Shown here: positions 1,803-57,885 of the stretch, one piece after another
How positions within the stretch are numbered: the stretch's first letter is position 1
Layout: each line of letters starts with the position of its first letter
DNA from: Eledone cirrhosa
Taxonomy: Eukaryota
NCBI GenBank assembly: GCA_964016885.1
Contig: OZ024741.1
Coordinates: forward strand, 51,336,001 to 51,400,000
Length of the DNA: 64,000 nucleotides
Direction of reading: 5' to 3'
Program-made: the position numbers and the translations under genes
The notes under the pieces: generated by a model
Databases searched by the model: none
Told to the model about the DNA's origin: nothing
What the model saw: only the letters and a program-made list of their open reading frames with translations

Positions 1803-1849
<47 letters not shown>

Positions 1850-1853
<4 letters not shown>

Positions 1854-2885
1854 TAGTCCTTCATCAGTGATCTTCCAACCATCATTGGTATTTCATCGCT
1901 TTAAAGACCATATACCTCCGGTTGGTGCGAGCAACGGCTAAAGAAAGTCGTTGGGACACGTAAATAAGGGGAACGAGCGAGAATGTAAACAAACAAGATG
2001 GTAAAGCAAAATCTGGGACTTGACTCTTTCTTCCTCACTTTTCGTTGCTTTACCATCTTTGTTTGTTTACATTCTCGCTCGTTCCCCTTATTTACGTGTC
2101 CCAACGACTTTCTTTAGCCGTTGCTCGCACCAACCGGAGGTATATGGTCTTTAAAGCGATGAAATACCAATGATGGCTGGAAGATCACTGATGAAGGACC
2201 ACTTTATTCATATGTAACCCATTTGCAACCACGCAGCACGTTTGTTTTCATATTTACACATATATTTTCCCCCGCTGTGACCCGTCTATTTCGTTCTTAC
2301 TGCTTCCTCTTTCTCTGTATATTTACCCTCTCTAACAGTCACTCTCTCTGTTAGCCTCTTCCTCACCCTTCACTCACTCACTCTCTGCTACTACCTCTCC
2401 TACTTCCTCCCGTTTGACCTGTGCGTAATTCTTTTCTCGCGCACGCTTGACCAGGCTGGTTGTTCCTTTTTTCTCTCTTGTCTACGATTTCACAGAACTT
2501 ATGTTCACCGAATTCAAGGACTAGACTCCTTCTTCCTCCCGTTTGACCTGTGCGGAATTCCTTCCTTGCTCACATTTCGACTAGGTTTGATGGTCTTTAT
2601 TCTCTCTCGCTCACGATTTCACCGAACTTATATTCATGGAAATCTGGGACTTGACTCTTTCTTCCTCACTTTTCGTTGCTTTACCATCTTTGTTTGTTTA
2701 CATTCTCGCTCGTTCCCCTTATTTACGTGTCCCAACGACTTTCTTTAGCCGTTGCTCGCACCAACCGGAGGTATATGGTCTTTAAAGCGATGAAATACCA
2801 ATGATGGTTGGAAGATCACTGATGAAGGACTAACTGTATTCATATGTAACCCATTTGCAACCACGCAGCACGTTTGTTTTCATAT
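1850..2885 (+). mobile_element. Penelope/retrozyme-like non-coding element: 631-nt period direct repeat plus adjacent inverted copy
   Basis: 2011-2255 repeated at 2642-2886; 1850-2010 is the reverse complement of about 2040-2200; flanked by (TA)n and (CA)n(TA)n. Confidence 0.7.
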
Positions 2886-2886
2886 T

Positions 2887-3616
<730 letters not shown>

Positions 3617-4818: not shown

Positions 4819-7800
4819 CTACAGGATGGTATACAGAGAAGGCCCATTTACACGAACCATTCTCGCCACTATCACCCACCTTTCATAAAACTGCCTGTGG
4901 CCAAGCACCTCTCTCTCCATTCTTATCCTTCTTCCGAAGTGATATCGGAAGAAGTAGACCAGACTATGGCCAGAGAGGAAGTTGCCTGACCTCAGACCTT
5001 TCAATCGTGTCCACCAAACAACCTCTTTCAACATGGCTATTACGTACAGAAAAACCGCCTTTGCTTCCTTTGTGAAGAGGGGAGGCGGTTTGATTGTCAT
5101 CACGGACTCGGCGGTCAATTTAATCGGCGCCACCTGCGACAGCAGTCGTTCGGTGTAGCCCCACAGATCAGCCACGCCCGGACATTGCACCAATGCGTGC
5201 GCAACGGTTTCTTCGTGACGTACGCATCTAGGGCAAATCTTTTTTGAGGGATCCCTGCCCGGGCGCCCGTGTCTGTAGAGCCTCTCTCGAACGGGTAGAG
5301 CACCCCGGTAGCACTGCCAGGCCAGTGACTTCTGGAAGTTGTCCATTGGTCCTGGGCCGAAAGTCCTACCGAACAGGCTGGCCAGTTCGTCTTCTTCCAT
5401 GTCCAGCGACTCTCCAAGGGTGTCATCGCCCCTGCTAGCCACCAGCCCTCTATAGAATGATGAGGTGGATTCTCCACCGATGGCCTGGCCCGCTTGCCAG
5501 AGAGCCCTGAGCGCCTGAGCACACTCAGTGTGCCAGTCTCCCAGTTTTCCGGATCTTTGCTTGACCCAGGACTGTAGCTCGGTGAGCGAGACGAGTCTCG
5601 GAAAGGCTCGTTTCACGAACGGAGCCCACACCGGTTGACCAGTGAGGAATACCTGTAGGTGCCGTAGCCTTAATGCGTGCCTACGCATCATCAACCACGG
5701 CATCCCCAGCCCTCCTTTCGAAGGTTGTTGGCAGCAGATGGATCTTCTCACCATAGGAGGGCGCTTCTTCCAAAGAAATTGGAAGAGCATGCGTTCCATG
5801 GTGGTGAGTGTTTCCTTAGGGCAAGGCACGACAGTCAGGCGGTAGTAAGTGACGGACGCTATGTAAATGTTCGCCACCTCCGCCCGGCCTTTTAGGGACA
5901 GCTTACACTTGGCCCATTTCTGGGTTAGTGCAAACACCTTGTTCGCAACCTCGTTCCAGTTCTTTTCCACCTGGAGGTCCGGTCCAAACCAGACCCCAAG
6001 CAACTTTACCGGGCCCTCCGTCCAGTGTCCGACGACACCGTCAGGAGGCATCAGTCTGCCTCTCCACGTTCCGAGTTGCAGCCCGATGGATTTTTCCCGG
6101 TTCAGTTTCGCTCCTGACAACCTTTCGTACTCCTCCAGTAAGGTACCGATCGCCTCGATCTCCGAGTCGGTCGATACCATTACTGTTACGTCATCGGCGT
6201 AGGCCGACACCGCTTTGCTCAATCCTGGTTCCAGGGGGATACCCTGCAACAACTCCAACTTCCTCAGTAAAGGCTCGAGAGTCAATACGTACAGAAGGGA
6301 GGAGAGAGGGCACCCCTGTCGAATGGATCGTGTGATTTCGAACGGCTTCGAAAGGTAGCCGTTCATCTTGATCCTAGAACAGATGTGGTTGCTATGTAGG
6401 GCAGTGATCCAGCCTCTGAAAACAGGACCGAACCCAGCCGCCGCTAGCACCGCATCCAGGTAACCATGGTCGACCCTATCGAAGGCCTTAGACTGATCCA
6501 AGTTGATCAGGGCCCCACCGAAGCCGGGTTTGTTGCCAACCCTCTCTATGATGTATCGCATGAGGTGGAGGTTATCGTGAATGGACCTGGATGGGATAGC
6601 ACATGTCTGCGCATCTCCCACCAGGCCACCCACGACAAGCGCCAACCTCTTTGCTAACACCTTGGCCAAAATCTTTAACTCTGTGTTTAGCAGGGTTATG
6701 GGCCGAAAATTATTTATACTATCCCCCTTGTTCTCGTCCTTCCTCACCAGCGTGACTACGCCCTTGGCTACAGAACAAGGAATTCTCCCGTTCTGCTGCC
6801 AATTGCAGTAGACCGCTTCGAGGAGTTCGGAGAAGAAGACCGGCATTGCTAAATAAAGTTCGTAAGGTATACCATTGAGACCTGGAGATTTGCGTCTGCT
6901 GCATTGGCTCAGCGCATCTCCGATCTCATCAGCCGAGATTGGTCCCTCGCAGGACTCTGCCTCTTCGCTCGAGAGACGCGGCAGGCCGTCGAGGTATGGA
7001 CCGAAATCCACGCCCCCCCCCCCCCCCGGACCCTCTCCTCCCCCGAACAATCGGGCAAAGTGCCTTTGAAAGGCCTCGCACATCTGCTTAGGCTCCCGGA
7101 TCACCCGTCCATCTTCGTCTTGCAACGACCGGATGGTGGATCGATTTCCACTCTTAGCTTCTGTCACGCGGGCCCATCCAACGGCTTTGGCCCCCTCATT
7201 ACCTAGAGCACGTATTTTACTTCGAATGACGCAGCCTTCGTGCTTTGCATCGAAAAACTGGTTCAAAGCCGTCCTCGATGCCAGCACTCTGGCCACATCT
7301 TCGCTCTTGATTGCCTCTTCTAATTTACCTGTTAATTCTTTCTCGTTTCTATTCCTATCGGCAGCTAACATCTTGCTATAACTTATTGATTCTGTTCTAA
7401 TCTCTCTTTTGAGAGATGCCCACCATCGGTTGTTGACGATTGCACCCGTCAACCTCTCCTTAACTAATCTGCTAATCCGGTTTCTGTAAGTCTCTTTTGC
7501 CGGTAAAGACAAATTAAGTTTCCAGTAACCGGGACCCTGTCTATGTGTTTTCTCGAGATTGACCACGCAGGTCACTAATTTGTGATCCGTGTAGCCAACC
7601 GTGCGCATTTCTGGACAGCTTAATATGTCCCTATCCTTACTTCTAACTAAGAATCTATCTAAGTACGATCTAGATTGACCACTGTGGTTTCTCCAAGTCC
7701 AGGTAGGCACAGTTGGAAAATCTAGTCGATATCTATCGACCAAGTTAAAACGGTCGAGTAACCCCTTGAGGCTGTTACACCCCCCTCTATTAGGACATGC

Positions 7801-8262
7801 TCCTGCATAGTCCCAACGTGCATCCAGGATGTCATTCCAATCCCCCGCTAGAAGCAGGGAACGCGACGTTCCCAAAAAAGTCTCCAAACGCTGGAAGAAG
7901 TCGGGCCGTTCAGCTCCGAAAGGGGAGTAGACGGCGACCAGTCTCAAGGCCGCACTTTCACTACTGCCAACGTCTAGCACCAACAAACGACCCTCCGGGT
8001 CCGAGTGCACAACCTGTACGGCAAGACCCAGGTGTTTTTGCAGCAGTACGACAACCCCACCCCCACCTCCAGGTTGACAGAGAGATGCATGCACCTCAAA
8101 GTCATCGAAGGTGGGGGCCAGCTGCCGCACGACGCTGATTCGAGTCTCACAGATAACCATTACATTTATACTACATGACCTGAGGTCATTTAGAAGCTTT
8201 GCTTGCTTCCAAGTTGAGCCCAAGCCACGTGCATTCAAACATCCTACTCTTAACACATCCAT
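4819..8262 (-). CDS. LINE ORF2: APE endonuclease + reverse transcriptase + C-terminal Cys/His motif
   Basis: LNARGL, GDWN, SYLDRF, YTDH (APE); FRPITLLN, LDQSKAFD, QGCPLS, YADD (RT); CPRC..ETVAHALVQC; 1147 aa open. Confidence 0.97.
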   Translation of the reverse strand: MDVLRVGCLNARGLGSTWKQAKLLNDLRSCSINVMVICETRISVVRQLAPTFDDFEVHASLCQPGGGGGVVVLLQKHLGLAVQVVHSDPEGRLLVLDVGSSESAALRLVAVYSPFGAERPDFFQRLETFLGTSRSLLLAGDWNDILDARWDYAGACPNRGGCNSLKGLLDRFNLVDRYRLDFPTVPTWTWRNHSGQSRSYLDRFLVRSKDRDILSCPEMRTVGYTDHKLVTCVVNLEKTHRQGPGYWKLNLSLPAKETYRNRISRLVKERLTGAIVNNRWWASLKREIRTESISYSKMLAADRNRNEKELTGKLEEAIKSEDVARVLASRTALNQFFDAKHEGCVIRSKIRALGNEGAKAVGWARVTEAKSGNRSTIRSLQDEDGRVIREPKQMCEAFQRHFARLFGGGEGPGGGGGVDFGPYLDGLPRLSSEEAESCEGPISADEIGDALSQCSRRKSPGLNGIPYELYLAMPVFFSELLEAVYCNWQQNGRIPCSVAKGVVTLVRKDENKGDSINNFRPITLLNTELKILAKVLAKRLALVVGGLVGDAQTCAIPSRSIHDNLHLMRYIIERVGNKPGFGGALINLDQSKAFDRVDHGYLDAVLAAAGFGPVFRGWITALHSNHICSRIKMNGYLSKPFEITRSIRQGCPLSSLLYVLTLEPLLRKLELLQGIPLEPGLSKAVSAYADDVTVMVSTDSEIEAIGTLLEEYERLSGAKLNREKSIGLQLGTWRGRLMPPDGVVGHWTEGPVKLLGVWFGPDLQVEKNWNEVANKVFALTQKWAKCKLSLKGRAEVANIYIASVTYYRLTVVPCPKETLTTMERMLFQFLWKKRPPMVRRSICCQQPSKGGLGMPWLMMRRHALRLRHLQVFLTGQPVWAPFVKRAFPRLVSLTELQSWVKQRSGKLGDWHTECAQALRALWQAGQAIGGESTSSFYRGLVASRGDDTLGESLDMEEDELASLFGRTFGPGPMDNFQKSLAWQCYRGALPVRERLYRHGRPGRDPSKKICPRCVRHEETVAHALVQCPGVADLWGYTERLLSQVAPIKLTAESVMTIKPPPLFTKEAKAVFLYVIAMLKEVVWWTRLKGLRSGNFLSGHSLVYFFRYHFGRRIRMEREVLGHRQFYERWVIVARMVRVNGPSLYTIL

Positions 8263-8295
8263 GTGGGCGGCAGAGCCAAAGGAGAGTGTAGAGAC

Positions 8296-10198
8296 CTACC
8301 TTTCCGCTTCCCGAGGTTCGGGTTGCACGACTTCCATGGGGTCGGGGGTGTTGGGTGAAGGGGTGTCTTGTGGTGGTGTGGGGTCGTCAGTGTGTGGTGG
8401 GGTTGGGGTGTTTGGAGTTGTGTTGGGGAGGGGAAGGGGAGGGGGAAAGCTTTTTAGTAGGACGCGGTTTATGGGTTTGACAGAGGGTGGTCCTACGTCC
8501 TCCTTAAAATCCTTTTTTAGTTTTTGGTAGAGGTTCATTGGGATCTTTATTAGTTTTAAATGTGGGTAGTTTTCTGACGAAACAAAGTTTACACCTTCGG
8601 TTTGTACCGAAGGATTATTGTATATGAGTTCATTTAGTTTATTATTGTTTCTGTTGATGTAAGTATAGTGTAATGTCTTTTTTTCCGATGGTGTGAGTGT
8701 TTCGAAGAGGGGAGGGGCAGGTTTGGTTTTGTTTGTTGCTGGAGGGGTGTTTTCTGTTTTGTTGGATTGTGTTGAGATTTGGGTGGGGGTTGTTTGTCCT
8801 TGTGTGTTTTGCACATGTTTTCTTTTTTTCCTTTTAATCTGTCTCAAGGACTCCGTTTCTTCCTCCGAATTCGTTGGGTTATCTTCAGTGTTGGAGGGAA
8901 GAGGTATGTTTGCTGGTAATGTTTCCGTGTTGGTTTTCTTTGTGGGGGAGATGGATGTCACTATGTTAGACTGTGTTGTGTGTTGTGTCTGCGGTGGTTG
9001 TGTTGTTTTATTGACTGAGGGGTTGGGTGGGCCTGTATTTTGTTTTGGGGTAATGTGTTGTGACTGTTTGTGTTGTGGTGGTGTTGTGGTTTTACTGAGG
9101 GACGGGTTGGGTGGGACTGAGTTTTGTTGTTTGTTTATCTGTTGTGGTGGTGGTGGTGGAGCTGGTGTTGGTAGCAGGGTTTTCTTTTTGTTGAGTTGGG
9201 GACAAGCGGCCTTCAGGTGCCCTCTGCCTGCACAGATATGGCAGGACGGCCTTCTCCCCTCCACGCTAATGTTTATATACCCGTGGTCCTCTAATAGGAT
9301 TCTGTCGGGTATTTGGGCGATGCGTTCAGGCTTCATTTGCACTACCAGCTCTATACCTGTTCCACTGAACCCATTGCCTGTGGTTTTCCCAATGGAAATC
9401 ACGTTGTCATTCACTGGATCGATGAAACCAGCTATGAGCCAGCAGTAGTCCACATCTGGCATCATTGCATCCAGCCATATGCGTTGAGTTCTTTTCCCCA
9501 TATAAGATGGATAAAAGGTGAAATTTTTCGAACGAATCGGTGACAAAGCACATTTTTTTGCCGCCGATTCGTTCTTCATGATAATTGCTAGGCTTCCATA
9601 CAGTCTGTCTTTTCTTATGAAAGTGGTTTCATTAAGTACTTCTGTGAGTACTGTTTTGATATCTGCTTGAGAAGGCTGTTCAGGTTTTTTTGTACTGTTG
9701 TTGATGGTCCGAAACTTGACCGTTCGGCTTTCAATGTCTTTCGTGAATTCTTGAGGCATTTTTACCGATAAAATACCATTCTCTCCTTCACTTATGTATT
9801 GTTTGGCGTCCGTGATCCTTCGTACCACATCTGAAATGTTTTCCGCTATATAAGTCAAAGATTTCTTTGTTTTCTGTGCAAATGAAATCTTGTCGTCTGC
9901 TTTGTTTTCTGATATGGTGTTATTTTCAACTGTTATTTTTGTGTTTGTTGTGTCTTTGTTTGTGTTATTAGTATTGTCATGCAATTTTTCAAATATTTTT
10001 TTTTTCGTTGTTGGAATCCAAGTCCAGATTTGTGTTTTCGTCATTTAATTTTTTCTCCGCAGATTCGTCTGTTTTTATTTTAATTTTTCCTTCCTTCTCT
10101 ATGACGTTAGTTGGGAAGGAAGGGAGGACTAAAGCGTGCGAGCTTACAACTCTTACCGCTGTCCCCCCACCACTATTTTCGTTCGCTGCGTTTAACAT
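8296..10198 (-). CDS. LINE ORF1 (gag-like, CCHC zinc knuckle); probable frameshift in A10 run near N-terminus
   Basis: CHICAGRGHLKAACP knuckle; Pro/Thr-rich C-terminal half; ORF 9989..10198 overlaps ORF 8296..10044 across homopolymer 9996-10005. Confidence 0.85.
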
Positions 10199-36251: not shown

Positions 36252-36287
36252 TCTTCTGATGAAGGACTAGCGCCCGAAACATTAAGA
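36252..36287 (+). ncRNA. minimal Penelope-type hammerhead, degenerate
   Basis: tctt CTGATGA aggactagcgccc GAAA ca TT aaga; lies 3' of a Penelope-like remnant. Confidence 0.55.
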
Positions 36288-36375
36288 CCCTCTTCCTGCT
36301 ATATCAAGCGTTAACCTAATATATCCCTTCCATATACTGTACCGATTGTGTTGTTATTTGTTTACCTTTTACATC

Positions 36376-51288: not shown

Positions 51289-51294
51289 AATATA

Positions 51295-51800
51295 TATTAA
51301 TCAAAATGGCAAGCTGTGTTGTTGCAATTAAGTATAATTAGAAATTAGAAGTTAGGATTATCCATCATCAGTTGTCTAGGCATTTCTTCGCGTTAAAGAC
51401 AATACCTCAGCCTAGGGAGAAACAATAACTAAAGTAAGTTATTGGGATAAAAAGAAGTGGGTGGAGAAAGAGAAGAACATGTAAAGACACGATGAGTGAG
51501 GCAACGTAAAGAGAGGAAAAAAGGAAAAAAATCAAGTCAATAATTCATTTCAAACATAAGAATGGACGAATTTTGACGAGGAGAAAAAGACGTCTTGACT
51601 GTGCGAGTGTGAGCGAGAAGACCGCGTACAGTGTTGGACGATGGAGGAAGTGAGAGAGAGAGAGAGTGAGTGAAGGAAAAGGCTAACCAAGGGAGGGTGA
51701 CTAGCAGAAGATAGCAGCAAGAGAAGAGAAAAAAAAGACAGGTCACAGCAGAGGGGGGAAGCATATATGAATCAAAATGGCGAGCTGTGTTGTTGCAAAT
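51295..51800 (-). mobile_element. diverged relative of the 1850-2885 element with short terminal direct repeat
   Basis: aatcaaaatggc(a/g)agctgtgttgttgcaa at about 51299 and 51770; shares the gaggtat..gtcttt..gcga.gaaat..actgatga.gga motif. Confidence 0.6.
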
Positions 51801-51966
51801 ATTGAAATATCTACACACATATATATATATATATACACACACATTCTTCTATAGAATCTGTATTTGGTATATATATACATATATGGCTCCTTTCCTCAAT
51901 GTAAACAAATGTATACATACATCTATACATATACAGAGAGAGAGAGAGAGAGAGAGAAGAGAGAGA

Positions 51967-56116: not shown

Positions 56117-56546
56117 CTACAAATACACAAAATTGAGATAAAGAAAGACTGAGAATTTACATCCATCAATACAAAGGAAACTGGTCAAATCTATTAGTCA
56201 AGGTTCTTCTAACAAACCATGATCGAAGGTTTTACTAAACCACCTATAAACCATGCACACACTAAGTGTAGAGTGTGTACATTTGTGACTGAAGAGGAAT
56301 ATGTGGATGAAGTAACTAAGCATGAATGAGAGAGAAAAGGAGAATGTGTGAGTGAGTTTTGTTGTTACAGCTCACACCTATGTAGGTTTAGCTGGCCTCC
56401 TACAAGGATGTACCTCATAGGAAGTTTCTTGGGTGTTTTAATGATAGGGACTCCAGTCCTCTCATATGGGAGTAAGTAGAGGTATATGAATGAGAATGCA
56501 GGAGTGAGTGGAAGTATATGAAAATGCTGTTAAAGCAGTAACTTAC

Positions 56547-56750
56547 CTGAGAAATGAGTCTGAAGTCGTGACTCACAAGAACCATGCCCCCATCAAAATC
56601 GTTGATAGCTTCAGCAAGGGCATCAATAGTTTCAATATCTAAATGATTGGTAGGTTCGTCCAATAGAAGCATATGAGGACTCTGCCAAGCCAACCAGGCA
56701 AAGATCACACGGCACCGTTGACCATCGGACAGATTCTTAATTGGACACAC
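56547..56750 (-). CDS. ABCF2: ABCF2-like exon with signature LSDGQ, Walker [12 protein letters not shown] and H-loop VSHD
   Basis: ttcaag acceptor, gtaagt donor; motifs read in ORF 56415..56873. Confidence 0.96.
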
Positions 56751-57885
56751 CTTGAAATACAAACAGCAACAGCAATAAAGACAATTCCTCCTTTGTGGTT
56801 GAGTAACCCACATACACACACCTCTCATTACAGAATTGGAATAATCAAACCAATGTTGAGCAAAATAAAGCAAATAAAAACCAAAAAATTCTCTACATAT
56901 GTCATCAGTATTTGAAAATTTCCTGTAATAAGTATTATACCTACATATGTATTCAGTGTTTCAATGTATTTTATACTGCTAACTATTAACCCTTTAACAT
57001 TTACATTACTCTATACTTACTAATGTATTTTCACGGTAAAGGCTTTACCTCACATAATATCAAATCTGAGATTTTGATGTTATTTATTTTGAGAACAATA
57101 CCTTAACATCAGTATGAGTGGCCAGTTTGAACAGAAAGAGGTGAGAGAATTCTGATTGAATATGGCTGGTTTAAATGCTGGGTTAGAGTGGTGGAATGGT
57201 AAAATTGGTAAAGTATCAGATAAAATGCCATTGCAGTATTCGTCCTGGCCCTTTACATACTAAATTTAAATCCTCCTGGGGGCGATAAAATAAAGTACTA
57301 TTCACATCATTGTTTAGTGTCTATTTTCCATGCTAGCATGGGTTTAGATGAGTTGTCCCATTTGAGGCATGTCACATGACACGTCTTGCTCATATAGAAC
57401 TGTTTCTGGCTTGGTTTCTACAGCTGGATGCCCTTCCTAACACCAACCGCATTTACAAAGTGGGCTGAGTGCTTTTGATCATGATACCTACATGACCACT
57501 GTACAGTGTGAACTGAGCGCTTTTTATTGTGGCACATACACGACCACTTTACAGTGTGTACTAGGCGCTTTTTATTGTGGCACCGCAACAATCACAGGGA
57601 TGTAATTGATTTTTTTTCCCCTCCCGCAAAATTGCTGGCATCGTGCTTGTTAGAAATAATTATTAAGAGAAGGTACATGGTTAAGCAGTTAGGGAGTCAT
57701 GACTCACGAGCATAAAGTCGTGAGTCCTATTCCCAGACCAGGTAGCATGTTGTATGTTGTATCCTTGAGCTAGACACTTTATGACATGCTGCTCCAGTTC
57801 ACTTCGCAATCAAAAACGATTTGTACCTGTAATTCAAGAGACCAGCATTGTTAGACATGGTGTCATGCTGAATCTCCTTGTGACT

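Follow-up and report, generated by a model that had tools for sequence, protein, structure and literature searches.

Eckert et al. (2023) named the blocks of the hammerhead ribozyme S, G and C, and the sections of their paper covered here (PMC10085705) report that RNAs of type SGC cleave in vitro. These are viroid-like RNAs from soil metatranscriptomes that are linked to hairpin ribozymes; for HRIMA-1 and its variant, which have a direct stem II, 407 and 176 sequences are listed there, with soil as habitat and RNA as molecule. Type CSG is represented in the same sections by two sequences only. The words 'Octopus', 'Mollusc', 'Metazoa' and 'Acropora' do not occur in the supplement, and another paper (PMC13725137) only cites hammerhead permutations in the sections covered. 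Our literature search, which reached mostly journals outside subscription, found no report of permuted hammerheads in animal retroelements.

Two kinds of animal element are relevant for comparison. Naiad Penelope-like elements (PLEs) insert into (TA)n targets as partial tandems, with inverted copies on the 5' side and a tail of 30-40 bp (Craig et al., 2021; PMC8557442). The covered parts of that paper state that Naiads are without canonical hammerheads, mark some 3' ends as 'HHR_core' or 'HHR_half_core', fitting no descriptor and given no structure, and call the cephalopod Naiads remnants. The other kind is the retrozyme; for those with type I hammerheads, the sections covered describe monomers that are circularised by a host ligase (PMC7229834). 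A 2026 annotation of octopus repeats mentions neither ribozymes nor Naiad in the portion covered (PMC13282606).

The window analysed here is a 64,000-nt stretch of the Eledone cirrhosa genome (contig OZ024741.1, positions 51,336,001 to 51,400,000), and window coordinates count from its first letter. It contains a complete predicted ribozyme at 2729..2830 (+), wider than the interval 2761..2830 in which a preliminary description, made from the letters alone, had placed a possible hammerhead. Each hammerhead strand named there was found at its position, and their order does lie outside types I-III: the cleavage strand comes first, then GAAA, then CUGAUGA, giving the block order S-G-C against the circular order C-G-S of types I, II and III. 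Our main reading, to which we assign a probability of roughly 0.7, is that this is a hammerhead-type RNA of order S-G-C, predicted to cut after A2775, and that the non-coding tandem repeat around it probably has a Naiad ancestor. The strand order is already published; the setting and the periphery are new.

The S block (2770..2781, this and all following parts on the plus strand) holds the 3' strand of stem III, the AUA triplet with the predicted cut after A2775 (H17, at 2775), and the 5' strand of stem I. A TTAA linker (2782..2785) leads from stem I to P3. The G block (2787..2799) comprises the 3' strand of P3, U11.1 (U2791), GAAA (2792-2795) and the 5' strand of stem III, and the C block (2813..2826) the 3' strand of stem I, CUGAUGA (CTGATGA at 2819-2825) and A10.1. 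Stem III pairs 2770-2774/2795-2799, and stem I 2776-2781/2813-2818. Behind stem III lies a K-turn-like loop, with the short strand GGA (2767..2769) opposite 2800-2805 (a 3-nt bulge, GA and U), and then the outer helix P4, in which 2761..2766 pairs with 2806-2811. Further upstream, the 5' strand of P3 (2756..2759) pairs with 2787-2790, 5' of GAAA, and appears to substitute for stem II. Hairpin P2 (2733..2754; 2733-2739/2748-2754) is optional and was not seen in older subfamilies. The 5' strand of P1 (2729..2732) has its partner at 2827-2830, directly after CUGAUGA-A, and would close the entire fold. In the window copy and its relatives, the core bases of CUGANGA, GAAA and UH lie next to their stems, as expected of a hammerhead.

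Two further near-identical copies, at 2188 (+) and 1867 (-), had gone unnoticed in the preliminary description. A covariance model built from relatives, the window copy included, matches the latter at 2754-2833 with 89 bits. No hammerhead family appeared among the best 150 of 269 matches in an Rfam scan of the window, these matches being microsatellite-driven, and the lowest-energy nested fold of the window copy pairs the 5' strand of stem I inside the stem III hairpin instead. The earlier suggestion of a pseudoknotted, non-standard hammerhead that standard descriptors miss is in our judgement the best reading, with covariation in its support. The window also has a CTGATGA followed 14 nt later by GAAA at 36256-36290 (+), possibly the remnant of an ordinary hammerhead.

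To see how common the motif is, we searched the 3.0-Gb genome with the pattern GAAA-N7-GA-N14-CTGATGA, which has 20,880 matches against 54 for the reversed control; dropping the GA gives 28,105 against 506. The predicted fold is present at about 20,000 copies in the E. cirrhosa genome, far above chance. When distinct matches were tested for three stems and UH, 83/127 passed in the genome and 0/24 in viral contigs (from 31 pattern loci). A set of 147 distinct genome matches formed 38 clusters, with UH at the fixed offset in 123/147. The commonest additional family listed without the GA is unrelated: its 470-nt repeat, found in tandem and inverted arrays (L500, L501 and L508-L511; for example G000:C1:22634300-22637400), has the core of an ordinary type I hammerhead, with CTGATGA, a short stem II, GAAA and a short palindromic stem III. 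This separate repeat is a conventional retrozyme beside the SGC families.

For covariation, we kept 26 of the 38 cluster representatives; the 12 removed had fewer than three of the four TTAA letters or no A at the 1n position. This filter is independent of pairing, yet it makes TTAA and the 1n A circular in the 26. Pairing filled 85.7% of cells (66.3% when shuffled), and the covariation score was 0.631, compared with 0.285 for shuffled alignments and at most 0.157 for slid registers. Changes on both sides were seen in 19 of 22 pairs, a count reached by 27/500 shuffles, which retain relatedness. They affect 5/6 pairs of stem I, 4/5 of stem III and 6/6 of P4, so stems I and III and the outer helix covary over 26 subfamilies drawn from across the genome. 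P3 is 75% paired, with two-sided changes in 3/4 pairs.

A second set comprised 14 closer families: of the 16 representatives in which GAAA is followed by T, L068 and L084 were omitted for their degraded upstream parts. Here, two-sided changes occur in 21 of 33 pairs, which 0/500 shuffles reached; P1 has 80% of cells paired and two-sided changes in 2/4 pairs, and P2 is 94% paired with such changes in 3/7. In the 26 representatives, a blind ranking of 3,240 column pairs placed predicted pairs at 1, 4, 5, 11, 20, 22 and 26, and several others low (530, 805 and 2,167), and unaided RNAalifold recovers P4 and stem III. The 10.1-11.1 pair is formed in 20/26 subfamilies (G-U in 9) and unpaired in 6/26. 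At least three of the four TTAA letters are present in 32/38 representatives.

Could the arrangement have arisen by chance in an amplified repeat, or by decay of an ordinary hammerhead? The copies share ancestry, and copy counts are therefore not independent, which leaves some room for this explanation. It nevertheless seems extremely improbable, given two-sided changes in every helix and the recurrence of the fold in other elements and other animals (see below). A decayed ordinary hammerhead should also have left a GAAA after CTGATGA, and none was found at a fixed place: as the preliminary description had held for its two copies, there is no stem II-GAAA downstream, GAAA falling within 60 nt downstream in 11/38 subfamily representatives at varying positions. 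(It lies 27 nt upstream in all of them, a spacing set by the search pattern itself.)

A more distant relative in the window, a member of what is here called family B, had been put forward as a second copy with compensatory changes and small deletions. It lies at 51357..51422 (-), within an insertion of an approximately 470-nt unit flanked by a 39-nt direct repeat (51292..51801, -). A natural intact relative has 2 nt more at the cleavage site and 12 nt more in the K-turn and outer stem, so the suspected deletions are real, and we regard this copy as likely dead as a ribozyme. Because of them, the outer stem drawn there earlier overlaps stem III and has to be given up; the compensatory pairs themselves are seen in intact family-B copies, full spacing being kept in 20 of the 30 best relatives. 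An exon-like frame lies at about 56420-56960 (-), and the 51.4-kb copy may be in or near that gene, which presumably encodes an ABC-F protein, as the frame resembles the C-terminal ABC domain.

An ordinary hammerhead has a direct stem II, in which the strand after CUGANGA pairs with the strand before GAAA. This was not the case here, direct pairing coming to 0 bp in 12, 1 bp in 16, 2 bp in 3 and 4 bp in 1 of 32 sequences. The 1-bp stem II of the preliminary description is correct in that direct pairing is minimal, but the picture was incomplete, because both strands also pair with upstream sequence. P3 joins the strand before GAAA to sequence immediately 5' of P4, and P1 joins the strand after CUGAUGA to sequence lying further 5', in many cases with hairpin P2 enclosed. 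Across the 32 sequences, own upstream partners fitted better than ones swapped in from other families in 2,000/2,000 permutations, for P3 and equally for P1.

The K-turn consensus places a 3-nt bulge and then tandem G-A/A-G pairs between two helices. The window copy fits this consensus: where stem III meets P4, its loop has a 3-nt bulge and then GA, opposite another GA. The GA of the long strand is present in 20,880 of the 28,105 pattern matches, and the short strand has GA in 15/26 subfamilies and UA in 10/26 (U for G at the 2n position). Judging from the sequences, this loop behind stem III and the upstream-strand substitute for stem II appear to be new features of this hammerhead.

In ordinary hammerheads, a contact between loops I and II clamps stems I and II. 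In the RNA described here, stem III would run through the K-turn into P4, which would bend back, and the far ends of P4, stem I and P3 would meet in a second three-way junction (with linkers of 1 nt, 1 nt and TTAA-N). This junction may clamp stems I and II in the manner of the loop I-loop II contact.

The window motif has the block order of type SGC. That type also combines a direct stem II with a helix that links stems I and II on their other sides, a combination that the motif lacks, and we therefore treat the window RNA as a variant that would work like SGC and not as the published motif. In contrast to HRIMA-1, it resides in a retroelement of an animal genome, has a stem II of 0-1 bp for which upstream strands provide new pairing, and has an extra helix that prolongs stem III through the K-turn-like loop. 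The topology is that of type CSG circularly permuted, the window RNA being opened at stem II and CSG after stem III. As CSG and SGC are circular permutations of each other, P1 and P3 would represent a stem II that is broken open between 10.1 and 10.2, with upstream strands supplying the new partners.

The ribozyme lies in a full, pyrimidine-rich, non-coding tandem unit of 631 nt (2261..2892, +), retrozyme-like in character, with an internal 129-bp duplication (2397-2667, +). It is preceded by a 5'-truncated copy (2009..2260, +; 98% identical) with its own ribozyme, predicted to cut after A2144, and by an inverted truncated copy at the 5' end (1838..2009, -), which carries the third ribozyme and ends without a tail. 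A tail of about 40 nt is found at one end only (2849..2886, +), and at 3' ends of both kinds the last letters ahead of the microsatellite are TTCATA. With (TA)n on the left (1805..1849) and (CA)n(TA)n on the right (2887..2983), the three window copies make up one insertion: an inverted piece, a 5'-truncated copy and a full unit. This partial tandem with inverted 5' copy, tail and (TA)n target follows the published Naiad/PLE insertion pattern, as far as the covered parts of that source describe it (PMC8557442). Unlike a Naiad PLE, the unit has no RT/EN ORF: no RT-like ORF was found in its 631 nt, nor the autonomous Naiad ORF (N-terminal GIY-YIG, CxC, DKA motif and RT).

Relatives elsewhere occur as 5'-truncated singles, tandems of up to at least 4 units and inverted pairs, and end about 25 nt past CTGATGA or, where a tail is added, 40 nt beyond that. 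Spacings between copies on the same strand group at 616-641 nt in the window family and at 654-706 nt in another. Three sets of contigs aligned to the unit contained many copies and head-to-tail joins. In DNA-like sequencing runs, one of the 40 variable sites listed (of 50 in the unit) falls within 2744-2833. Among 99 entries for copy 5' ends, with duplicates partly removed, 18 begin within 60 nt of GAAA and 2 exactly at the cut site; 3 from one locus begin 3 nt upstream of it, and there is no clear pile-up at the predicted cut site in this set.

Short non-coding tandem units with one ribozyme per unit, thousands of copies, a GC content under 50% and a proposed Penelope-like origin also characterise the animal non-LTR retrozymes, according to the sections covered of two reports (Cervera and de la Pena, 2020; Li et al., 2026; PMC7229834; 10.64898/2026.07.22.740005). 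Those retrozymes are defined by a type I hammerhead, the only kind of motif treated in the sections covered, whereas the element here has the order SGC and a 631-nt unit, and is known from DNA. By analogy, read-through tandem transcripts would be cut at successive sites (A2144 and A2775) into 631-nt monomers, which a host ligase may circularise as in type I retrozymes, and a Penelope-like reverse transcriptase acting in trans could then copy the circle into (TA)n.

We also read the published Naiad 3' ends by eye in the part of the supplement covered (PMC8557442), using the contexts of CTGANGA matches in the Naiad file, in which matches split by a line end are missed. Of 54 consensuses, 10 end in S-G-C with upstream pairings: Obim, Ovul, Esco, Amil, Aacu and Anas, together with families identified from their place in the file (one from Clytia, two from Morbakka and one from a crustacean). 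A weak eleventh case is Bfor. Six more, from the nematode section (Nbra-1, -2 and -3 and three others), read as C-S-G; these have a direct stem II, and an additional helix occupies the position of P4. Naiad_Obim and Naiad_Ovul share the GAAA-to-CUGAUGA spacing, K-turn letters and hairpin loop of the window relatives. The S-G-C order at the Naiad tail is likely the reason that Naiads have been reported without such an RNA. Several half-core ends of ostracod and spider Naiads, viewed in the same way, fitted neither SGC nor CSG and may be further variants.

The Naiads of E. cirrhosa itself seem to survive only as relics. Naiad protein searches of the genome gave 90 and 154 matches, degenerate ones, and the patterns DKA(S/T)NN and DKA(A/G)NN yielded one Naiad-like relic and none, respectively. 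A sense-strand ribozyme within 5 kb downstream was found at 0/40 Naiad-like relics, and none was found in 30 relic flanks that overlap these 40; an alignment of relic 3' ends gave nothing callable. As possible autonomous partners, we considered loci with long ORFs and top GIY-YIG loci (20 and 30 of 150 matches), which have a C-terminal endonuclease where readable and no SGC motif tied to the ORF end. The 19 matches to CxxCxxQYVGQT were likewise set aside, their letters, as listed, resembling C-terminal-EN families. At five loci (L152, L153, L158, L164 and L165), which are PLEs with a C-terminal endonuclease, a minimal core resembling type I follows the ORF at a distance of 350-410 nt; some relatives have long open frames (L149, 938 aa, and L151) and are candidate mobilisers.

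The same fold was found in a second group of retroelements. A metagenome scan gave 119 loci with 114 distinct matches, of which two (L455 and L499) have the full periphery and one passes the strict test; among the first 80 loci, 0/76 distinct matches pass it. L455 and L499 are fish-like contigs, the former with what we read as a vertebrate-like exon, and in both the motif, TTAA linker included, lies about 100 nt after the end of one common kind of ORF. Helix and linker lengths are nearly constant across the subfamilies and in these contigs. A protein piece from this ORF has 148 matches in the E. cirrhosa genome. Of 30 LINE loci fetched, 14 satisfy a strict S-G-C descriptor on the downstream sense strand, with 0 in the upstream and antisense controls. 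A covariance model built from the window superfamily only matches 15/30 of these loci at E <=0.001 and the fish-like contigs at E 0.005 and 0.02, all E-values being rough; it has no match in 6 PLE loci with a C-terminal EN, in the flanks of 10 Naiad relics or in 2 type I repeats.

One of these LINE loci, L542, encodes an RT (Pfam RVT_1), a zinc-knuckle and a C-terminal endonuclease-like region whose relatives occur in many fish, amphioxus and bivalves. Such LINEs are of the RLE type, and we take the clade to be Hero or Hero-like. The ribozymes of R2, which also belongs to the RLE group, are 5' and HDV-like, and we found no 3' hammerhead of RLE-type LINEs in the literature, searched mostly outside subscription journals. 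A PDB sequence search with the LINE piece returned 0 matches; the RLE protein has 1 weak locus in viral contigs and 0 in prokaryote contigs.

Might the tandem unit have descended from, or been mobilised by, such a LINE instead of a Naiad? The question bears only on ancestry, and either answer agrees with the ribozyme reading. It would fit the presence of the fold in the LINEs of this genome and its absence from the Naiad relics found there. We nevertheless think it unlikely, as the insertion has the features published for PLEs (a partial tandem, an inverted 5' copy, a tail on one side and a (TA)n target), and the hairpin and K-turn region is, by eye, nearer to the octopus Naiad consensuses than to the LINE version.

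A further question is whether the fold forms within one molecule. The active form could be a dimer, in which the multiloop (P3 5' strand and C block) of one copy docks on the hairpin loop (S and G blocks) of another, and which would arise only in tandem transcripts or paired molecules. Minimal Penelope hammerheads act as dimers, the copies here occur in tandem, and covariation is blind to the difference between cis and trans. Some of the published Naiad versions viewed in the part of the supplement covered have nearly unbroken stem III-P4 rods of 13-15 bp with little bend, by eye, and such long rods would probably be hard to fold within one molecule. On the other hand, helix and linker lengths are near-fixed across subfamilies and fish-like contigs, and most RLE-LINE copies have a single ribozyme. 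The nematode CSG versions, by eye in the covered part of the same source, combine a long helix with a short linker or a short helix with a long linker, a trade that fits a distance constraint in cis. Overall, a strictly dimeric ribozyme seems rather unlikely.

The fold might also be real but weakly or no longer catalytic, serving as a 3' structure for the reverse transcriptase or for an L7Ae-family K-turn binder. The irregular stem II, the weak or missing 10.1-11.1 pair in many families and the lack of a 5'-end pile-up at the cut site in the 99 entries could be taken this way, and a cut 100 nt into the 3' UTR of a LINE would separate the ORF from the 3' end. Yet the catalytic positions, including UH (at its fixed offset in 123/147), are kept across otherwise divergent families and in two unrelated groups of retroelements, which makes a non-catalytic role improbable.

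Taking the predicted S-G-C ribozyme as the better reading, on balance we favour a wider view in which non-circularly permuted hammerheads are a widespread and overlooked 3' module of animal retroelements. Naiads would use SGC or CSG from cnidarians to cephalopods and nematodes; RLE-type LINEs of E. cirrhosa and fish would share the K-turn-clamped fold in their 3' UTR; and a Naiad-derived retrozyme would have reached about 20,000 copies, possibly by a switch to the reverse transcriptase of another element after the Naiads died. If these RNAs cleave, the scrambled hammerhead, so far a matter of a few hundred contigs of soil RNA, would have tens of thousands of copies in an animal genome and a place in two unrelated retrotransposon groups. 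This would solve the printed puzzle of Naiads whose cores fit no descriptor and which are said to proliferate without hammerheads, and would give RLE-type LINEs a 3' ribozyme, of which we found no description. There would also be a naturally occurring hammerhead that has a K-turn and a second junction in place of stem II and the loop-loop contact, and that might offer proteins a point of control. Surveys of ribozymes and retrozymes based on types I-III would then be too low in their counts for animals.

Several minor observations concern the LINEs. Two subfamilies of RLE-LINE (L524, L533, L537 and L539; L535, L538 and L540) have more diverged S-G-C motifs, one of them with a longer 3' UTR and no clear K-turn. 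The window itself has two long adjacent open frames (582 and 1,158 aa) at about 4820-10050 (-), which read like a young endonuclease-RT LINE. L542 contains two LINE copies head to tail, 3.6 kb apart, and over 363 aa its C-terminal LINE region (L542:6951-8039) shares 71% identity with a seahorse protein, a similarity that possibly reflects horizontal transfer between the E. cirrhosa genome and fish.
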